DNA from: Eledone cirrhosa
Taxonomy: Eukaryota
Assembly: GCA_964016885.1 (NCBI GenBank)
Contig: OZ024763.1
Coordinates: forward strand, 16,368,001 to 16,432,000
DNA length: 64,000 bases
Reading direction: 5' to 3'
The notes below the pieces were generated by a model, which was not told the origin of the DNA, searched no databases, and saw only the letters and a program-made list of their open reading frames with translations. Positions within the stretch are counted from its first letter, which is position 1; each line of letters begins with the position of its first letter. The position numbers were made by a program, and so were the translations under genes. Positions 6,453 to 6,986 of the stretch are shown piece after piece.

Positions 6453-6492
<40 letters not shown>

Positions 6493-6597
6493 TAAAAGGA
6501 ATTCCAACTTTGTCTGATTTACTCGTTTTATTTACAGTCCTTTAAAATTTATAATGTTATTAGAATGAAATAGTATGGTAGAATGTTAAGTGTTAAT

Positions 6598-6636
6598 TGA
6601 ACAAGTACTTTCATGCTTTTGCAATCTTCAGGTTCA
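6598..6636 (-). ncRNA. Minimal type I hammerhead ribozyme
   Basis: Reverse complement: tgaac CTGAAGA ttgc-aaaa-gcat GAAA gtac TT gttca. Confidence 0.8.
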
Positions 6637-6709
6637 TATTGTGTGGTGACAGTCAAGTTTGCAATTTTCAACTGTTGAAAATTGCAAACTTGACTGTCAC
6701 CACTCATTA

Positions 6710-6748
6710 TGAACCTGAAGATTGCGAAAGCATGAAAGTACTTGTTCA
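6710..6748 (+). ncRNA. Minimal type I hammerhead ribozyme
   Basis: tgaac CTGAAGA ttgc-gaaa-gcat GAAA gtac TT gttca; stem I tgaac/gttca, palindromic stem III aagtactt. Confidence 0.85.
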
Positions 6749-6986
6749 ATTAACACTTAACATTTACAATTCTACCATACTATATCATTCTAATACCATT
6801 ATAAATTTTAAAGGATTGTAAATAAAACGAGTAAATCAGACAAAGTTGGAATTCCTTTTATTAATATAATCTTCTATACACAATCATACACACCCTTGTA
6901 TATTTATCTCTATATATATATATATATCTATATATACTATTCAAAATATTAACAAATGAAGATATTCACATAATCAAAATATATGC

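Follow-up and report, generated by a model that had tools for sequence, protein, structure and literature searches.

Head-to-head palindromes from a Penelope-like element in Eledone cirrhosa, folded at a fixed base that probably marks an RNA start site

Penelope-like elements (PLEs) are known to leave inverted copies of their pseudo-LTR (pLTR), tails on one side only and insertions targeted to TA sequences (PMC3846280, PMC8557442), and the promoter of Penelope has been located in the pLTR (PMC2377424). In the available text of the first two sources, the mechanism of the inverted copies is given as undefined or as antisense self-priming. Metazoan PLEs also carry minimal hammerhead ribozymes, of which opposite-strand pairs lying 100-700 bp apart have already been noted, with low in vitro activity and, in the available portion of the paper, no in vivo evidence (PMC4209133). 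For the anole PLE Poseidon, it was found that the element protein, a predicted dimer, cleaves and extends both strands, that reverse transcription starts at two adjacent internal sites bounding the tail, that targets are AT-rich, and that uncleaved RNA is the main template, with no RNA reads ending at the ribozyme cut in the text at hand (PMC11167929). The origin of PLE inverted structures and hammerhead cutting in the cell are both left open in the accessible parts of PMC8557442, PMC3846280, PMC4209133 and PMC11167929. A search of the main text of openly accessible papers found none linking a PLE fold to a start site, a cap or a ribozyme cut.

This study concerns a stretch of 64,000 nt from Eledone cirrhosa (contig OZ024763.1, hereafter the window). 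Comparison of the window with itself revealed a near-perfect inverted repeat at 6490-6909, set between TA repeats. Masked self-BLAST was chosen for inverted repeats, as TA arrays swamped plain repeat finding, and it returned an inverted match over 6492-6861 (92.8%, E 2e-160). Over an aligned length of 186 nt, the arms differ by 6 substitutions and a single 7-nt indel, and they enclose a loop of 1 nt (T6673), in agreement with a preliminary description that had proposed arms of about 185 bp and almost no loop. The left arm (6490-6675, minus strand) runs from element position +1, at 6675, to a short end at about +198, has no tail and carries the 7-nt deletion; the right arm (6674-6868, plus strand) covers +4 to +198 and is followed by an AC-rich tail of 41 nt (6869-6909, plus strand), present on this arm only, that runs on into ORF1 in full-length parents. 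On the left, an (AT)20 microsatellite (6450-6489), likely the target, masks any target-site duplication, and on the right lies a TA-rich flank (6910-6936); a target-site duplication check likewise found TA repeats at the flanks of other copies of this family, here called family A. The palindrome is a real back-to-back pair of short PLE pieces and probably a single insertion.

One minimal type I hammerhead core per arm was detected by motif scan, both pointing outward, so that the earlier picture of one ribozyme per strand and a one-sided tail stands at the level of motif and arm alignment. The minus-strand motif occupies 6598-6636 (core 6631-6603, predicted cut between 6603 and 6602) and the plus-strand motif 6710-6748 (core 6715-6743, predicted cut 6743/6744, i.e., element +73/+74). 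Each combines a 5-bp stem I, a 3-bp stem II with tetraloop and a palindromic 6-nt stem III; the CUGANGA and GAAA boxes, UH, stem I and palindromic helix III are all found, and the core is intact in 81 of 98 aligned arms. The location of a type I motif in the pLTR and the short palindromic helix III are shared with the metazoan PLE hammerheads, as far as these are described in the available text (PMC4209133), whereas the conserved G10.1-C11.1 pair of the latter is missing here: U faces U at the base of stem II, and the family A motif has U at 17. At gathering score, Rfam gave no match to a hammerhead family, and over 6400-13400 at E<=10 none of its 117 matches belonged to one, so the hammerhead call rests on the motif. 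The short hammerhead stretch by itself is predicted to fold as the motif at -5 kcal/mol, no better than shuffled sequences. For the 421-nt read-through strand, the predicted energy is -271.7 kcal/mol (z -40; 0 of 100 shuffles equally stable), and both motifs are absorbed into one duplex; the earlier suggestion that read-through RNA would form a long hairpin masking the ribozyme is therefore borne out in the predicted fold.

The parent of 6490-6909 is a 4.2-kb PLE of the same genome encoding reverse transcriptase (RT) and GIY-YIG domains, and the proposal that these palindromes are reverse-transcription products of PLEs is thereby upheld. A search of the genome with the right arm gave 435 candidates, of which 40 were scored and 30 fetched (95-100% identity); among the loci recovered, L028 runs upstream into the end of the RT-GIY-YIG frame. 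Exact motif counts amount to 4467 arm cores and 1475 copies with the upstream promoter kept. Eight long loci contain 4.2-kb units with the matching region at both ends, and pLTRs arising from partial tandems, in which the +1 region occurs twice about 4.2 kb apart, are present in L143-L146. A 775-aa frame in L143 matches RVT_1 at E 2.9e-6 (27.6 bits, below the 29.6 cut-off) and, C-terminally, GIY-YIG at 27.8 bits (above the 22.6 cut-off), with YLDD and CCHH motifs visible. A C-X4-C-X2-C linker lies at about residues 650-658; a CX2-5CxxC linker before GIY-YIG is described as a mark of the Neptune and Nematis clades (PMC8557442). Two overlapping frames, of 476 and 775 aa stop to stop, are seen in L143, L145 (a 512-aa piece) and L150; the upstream frame begins directly after the tail and has no significant Pfam match. 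PLEs are otherwise described as single-ORF elements, and both the position of the ORF after the tail and the two overlapping frames differ from anole Poseidon as presented in the text at hand (PMC11167929). The two frames stand at the same offset in several young copies (L143:982-4643; L144, L145, L150), and this layout may reflect a frameshift, an intron or a true second ORF. Promoter-bearing copies also form head-to-head pairs, spaced at 0.4-8 kb and differing in their inner ends. The 8.7-kb head-to-head pair L150 (G000:C1:21871800-21881000) consists of two full-length elements with both frames open. The parent pLTR was furthermore compared with two reduced-representation raw-read runs from another study and two contig sets from other organisms. 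The family is present in these samples, and beyond the tail its depth drops by a factor of about 15 to 200. Among the matches listed, none changed strand at +1, a result that counts neither for nor against the fold: reads end at or beside AATT sites, which lie within 10 nt of the fold on either side, and short-read contigs break at palindromes.

Family A shares with the published PLEs, to the extent that their text is available (PMC3846280, PMC8557442), the parent with RT and C-terminal GIY-YIG, the partial tandems, head-to-head inverted copies, a tail of the 30-40 nt class on one side, TA-repeat targets and TATA/initiator-like motifs in the pLTR; the inverted 5' copy and the optional tail at one end both occur in it. 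It is therefore a known structure, to which new, testable mechanistic signatures can be added: a fold at the probable start site, an extra G, folds at the predicted ribozyme cut and a fixed pairing of ends. The published pLTR is inverted and 5'-truncated, and the preliminary description had likewise mentioned an inverted, truncated pLTR. In the commonest family A form, by contrast, the arms show no random truncation and span the interval between an invariant +1, marked by an extra G, and either of two invariant outer ends. Non-LTR retrozymes (10.64898/2026.07.22.740005, PMC7229834) resemble the palindromes in being short, non-coding, PLE-derived and equipped with a type I hammerhead, but, as described in the available portions, they are head-to-tail tandems between ribozyme cuts, whereas the palindromes pair head to head and retain sequence lying upstream of the cut. 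Examined for retrozyme-type tandems, the pairs of the window and the family A loci that were fetched proved to be arranged head to head; one family C locus, L183, has a short tandem of 5' pieces. Short 5' pieces repeated several times in tandem inside a palindrome were seen in both L183 and L152 (family B).

A pattern spanning the fold matched the genome 829 and 843 times on the two strands and a control pattern 0 times; the resulting figure of about 950 start-site fold loci is an estimate, the first 100 matches listed corresponding to 57 loci. Among the 56 of these that were fetched, 16 junction forms occur, and 30 junctions are letter-identical to that of the window (6669-6678), making this the commonest form in family A; the loop is 1 nt long in 35 of the loci and 4 nt long in another 12. 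Roughly half of the family A copies sampled are folded at one and the same base. The fold point had been said to lie at varying distances from the ribozyme, which holds between families but not within family A, where the distance is mostly fixed. In both family A subfamilies, the parent has a TATA box 31 nt upstream of the fold base, and family B has one at -32; family C has a fixed +1 but no TATA box at -30. Among 71 solo copies that extend from tail to TA and have TAT directly ahead of this position, 54 carry G there, 15 carry C and 2 carry A (a hand count, from which the parent base T was excluded by the search pattern), and the excess of G over C is significant (p=3e-6). In family B, where the parent base is C, G precedes +1 in 8 of 10 non-parent starts, and in family C in 3 of 6. 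From work on L1 it is known that a full-length copy ending in an untemplated G bears the sign of a copied cap. Because of this G and of the TATA box 31 nt upstream, +1 is read as the probable capped start of the sense RNA, and each arm would be a complete copy from an internal priming site to the RNA start. Lacking promoter and ORFs, the palindromes themselves are likely dead by-products.

A second, rarer fold position lies at the predicted ribozyme cut. In L150, one arm starts at +74, the first base past the cut, and 60 loci genome-wide fold near the cut, compared with 13 and 7 at two control positions (p 2e-8 and 1e-11) that were given anchors of equal length and gap and their own palindromic words. 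In the 50 such loci that were fetched, 20 of the 100 arm ends fall at +73/+74, 11 at +72, 5 over +67 to +71, 9 at +66, 52 at +75 to +78 and 3 elsewhere. The edge at +73/+74 is what cleavage would be expected to produce, and the ends at +75 to +78 could reflect stalling at stem I. A later central deletion was considered as the source of this class; the control positions, with palindromic words of their own, yielded 13 and 7 loci, but about half of the 50 junctions do use local microhomology. Local microhomology and stalling at stem I do account for part of the class. While the available text of PMC4209133 offers no in vivo sign of cutting, family A shows an excess of folds where the ribozyme is predicted to cut. 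An uncontrolled count for family C gave 149 loci that fold around the cut, many of them passing it via AT-only palindromes.

The outer ends follow a rule. Among 35 complete start-site palindromes (the other 21 of the 56, in which one side was truncated or ambiguous, were left out), 34 combine one short with one tailed end (p=1e-9), as do 31 of 33 ribozyme-fold loci and all 26 scored loci of the mixed class, in which one arm ends at +1 and the other at the cut; in all 18 family C cases, the partner arm is the short one. Solo and long copies, too, have the short end as their outer limit. Where the junction is of the modal form, +1 is reached by a tail-less arm 10 times and by a tailed arm 9 times. 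In the window copy the tail-less arm reaches +1, so the tailed arm cannot be a simple copy of the other. Over all junction types, the arm nearer to +1 is tailed in 20 and short in 11. Mixed junctions number 29, against about 400-430 expected if the arms were independent, so the inner ends are coupled; the mixed class is itself impure, several of its junctions reading as start-site palindromes with an internal deletion. Arm concordance was assessed in 48 palindromes, 14 of them from the best-match set of the right-arm search, and in most cases both arms belong to one subfamily. Outer diagnostic sites differ between arms in 23 of 328 comparisons (7%), against 45% for random pairs, and the remaining sites in 147 of 8074. 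Three positions, +34, +35 and +37 (6704-6707 and the mirror site in the window), differ in 33 of 142 comparisons, often by stepwise intermediates in palindromes whose arms share rare outer variants; copy-choice at the ribozyme break and a local mutation hotspot are both possible explanations. An early reading in which the arms derive from two independent RNAs was dropped as the main route in view of the scarcity of mixed junctions and the low outer-site discordance.

In the reading favored here, the element protein would prime reverse transcription from both strands of the AT-repeat target, and the sense RNA would be copied from two internal start sites back to its 5' end, which would mostly be the likely cap and, in a few percent of cases, the hammerhead cut. 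The two cDNA tips would then be joined head to head, annealing through 2-6 bases, and both cDNAs would usually stem from a single RNA or from two RNAs paired through their ribozymes. A single RNA could be copied a second time only with strand displacement, which counts against this reading. L1 twin priming also uses both target strands as primers, but its two cDNAs cover different parts of the RNA, whereas those of family A would cover the same part. The two outer ends may be the priming sites, by analogy with anole PLE reactions in vitro: the two Poseidon start sites correspond to the short and tailed ends of family A, although the Poseidon account, in its available text, includes neither head-to-head products nor the pairing of a short with a tailed end (PMC11167929). 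The zero-loop junctions, the rule of one short and one tailed end, and the extra G count in favor of this reading. The predominance of tailed arms nearest to +1 (20 versus 11) leans toward a tailed primary cDNA and thus against this reading; a later inversion between the arms could have scrambled the polarity. The lack of a TATA box at -30 in family C also counts against it, as does the cut-fold set of that family, which is not a clean replicate. Judged on such sequence signatures, the full version, i.e., two full cDNAs primed on sense RNA from both target strands and joined at their tips, has about an even chance of being correct.

The strongest competitor has one cDNA fold back at the RNA 5' end through a 3-4 nt loop, be copied outward, and anneal by this copy to a shorter second cDNA that was primed on the other target strand at the other start site. 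The two readings part ways solely over the origin of the inner portion of the second arm, and the core common to both, namely a sense RNA, double priming and synthesis running to the 5' end, is very probably right. Folding back accounts for the coupling of inner ends (29 mixed junctions versus about 400), for the concordance of the arms and for the two full-length arms of L150; loops of 1 nt (35 of 56) and of 4 nt (12 of 56) would be tri- and tetraloops, short self-templated fillers fit, and either polarity is allowed. The coupling, the concordance, L150 and the fillers suit it as well as they suit two cDNAs. At the modal junction, however, a folded cDNA would be primed by one A-T pair, where two tips can pair 4 of 5 bases; the zero-loop junctions of L188, L208, L235, L240 and L256, readable as two tips annealed or blunt-joined, would need added bases; and in L008, L054 and L065 the arms differ at linked subfamily sites. 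This version is a real possibility, albeit one we would not bet on.

Without the second priming event, a single primed cDNA would fold and its copy would join the target by microhomology, which is close to the snap-back or template-switch origin first suggested. Coupled inner ends and concordant arms are as expected from such a snap-back, and the TA-rich short end could anneal to the target. The copy should, however, often cross the tail, and tailed-plus-tailed pairs make up 0 of 35 palindromes and 2 of 14 added best-match ones; a cDNA that lacks the tail cannot be the template for one, although the arm at +1 is tail-less in 10 of 19; and the short end recurs as the outer end of solo and long copies. 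Reverse transcription was correctly proposed, but the bare snap-back, improbable in our estimate, fails on end pairing (34 of 35) and on the polarity of the +1 arm, and a second priming event is therefore needed. For rotifer Penelope elements, self-priming of an antisense RNA has been proposed, on the grounds that an RNA priming its own copying can give head-to-head folds only from an antisense template (PMC3846280, available portion). The folds of family A lie at the sense, TATA-defined +1 with its extra G and at the sense ribozyme cut, neither of which is an end of an antisense RNA, and we consider this origin very improbable here. If the whole palindrome moved as one mobile element, be it a MITE or a fold-back DNA transposon that duplicates TA targets, the 30 of 56 identical junctions, the TA flanks and the many copies would fit, and identical fold points had been named beforehand as a sign of MITEs. 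Such identity does occur, but it is explained by the RNA 5' end; the ends are unlike (short versus tailed) in 34 of 35, 16 junction forms exist among 56, arms often stand alone or keep the promoter (4467 arm cores; 1475 copies with the promoter) and the arms belong to an RT-encoding parent, which leaves little room for this explanation. Lastly, a fold-back artefact of sequencing or assembly is scarcely credible, given arms that differ by 6 substitutions and an indel, ends that are asymmetric by rule, later insertions confined to one arm (7644-7731; truncated class) and folds at family-specific bases.

The same geometry had been reported for five further sites in the window. All five are head-to-head pairs, from families other than family A, but a near-absent loop applies to 7252-7793 and roughly to 11998-12453, the other three having long or degraded middles; several hammerhead cores are broken. 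The family B palindrome at 7252-7793 has a 3-nt loop (7516-7518) in the +1 region of that family, its tail on the left, an 88-nt insertion in the right arm (7644-7731) and AAAA instead of GAAA in both cores; a further family B copy (6983-7165, minus strand) keeps the upstream promoter with its TATA box at -32 and +1 at 7109. The family C palindrome at 11998-12453, with its tail on the right, has intact cores at 12268 (plus) and 12098 (minus), and its left arm extends 6 nt upstream of +1 (12187). At 12508-13260, about 480 nt separate the arms, the left core being intact and the right altered. The pair at 29660-31290, whose right core is likewise altered, is split by a 1.2-kb minisatellite (29942-31157; 26 bp, 47 copies, 95% matches) that expanded from the inner end of the pair, and that at 55512-55841 is older, with arms 74% alike. 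Other repeats also form TA-flanked palindromes with a near-zero loop and no hammerhead inside (3976-4085, 4119-4335, 26665-26768, 46785-46846, 52672-52798), and single hammerhead motifs occur in other repeat copies at 26548-26602 (plus) and, on the minus strand, at 47492-47437, 54785-54736 and 7041-6992. The window further contains a 123-bp tandem array (48560-50260; 14 copies, 97% matches) and a tRNA-like head (63727-63784, minus strand, 29.3 bits) of a repeat family with many copies there, probably a tRNA-derived SINE. Near-zero-loop hairpins number 7 in the window and 42 in 361 kb of flanks, or about 116 per Mb, a figure for which the flanks may be enriched and the PLE origin is established for part of the hairpins.

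A young, high-copy family yields base-level rules: +1 is fixed and bears an extra G, the predicted ribozyme cut provides a second stop, short ends pair with tailed ones, and the inner ends are coupled. These rules speak for double priming on a sense template that is capped, and they are testable in the existing in vitro PLE system. If +1 is the capped RNA start, the start-site folds would show how the long-puzzling inverted insertions of PLEs arise. If the hairpin density of the window is typical, these by-products would also form a large pool of potential duplex RNA; the idea has a precedent in the heavy editing of Penelope reported for a lizard, and an unassigned excess of duplex-forming loci is described for an octopus (PMC5625713, available text). 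Joined into one tentative proposition, unlikely to hold in every part, the palindromes would be a fossil record of the PLE insertion cycle, in which a dimeric enzyme primes both target strands, with one capped sense RNA or a ribozyme-held pair as template: their folds would map start sites, those at +74 would record in vivo cutting that affects both arms together, and hairpins on the order of 10^5 per genome could be a main source of duplex for RNA editing.
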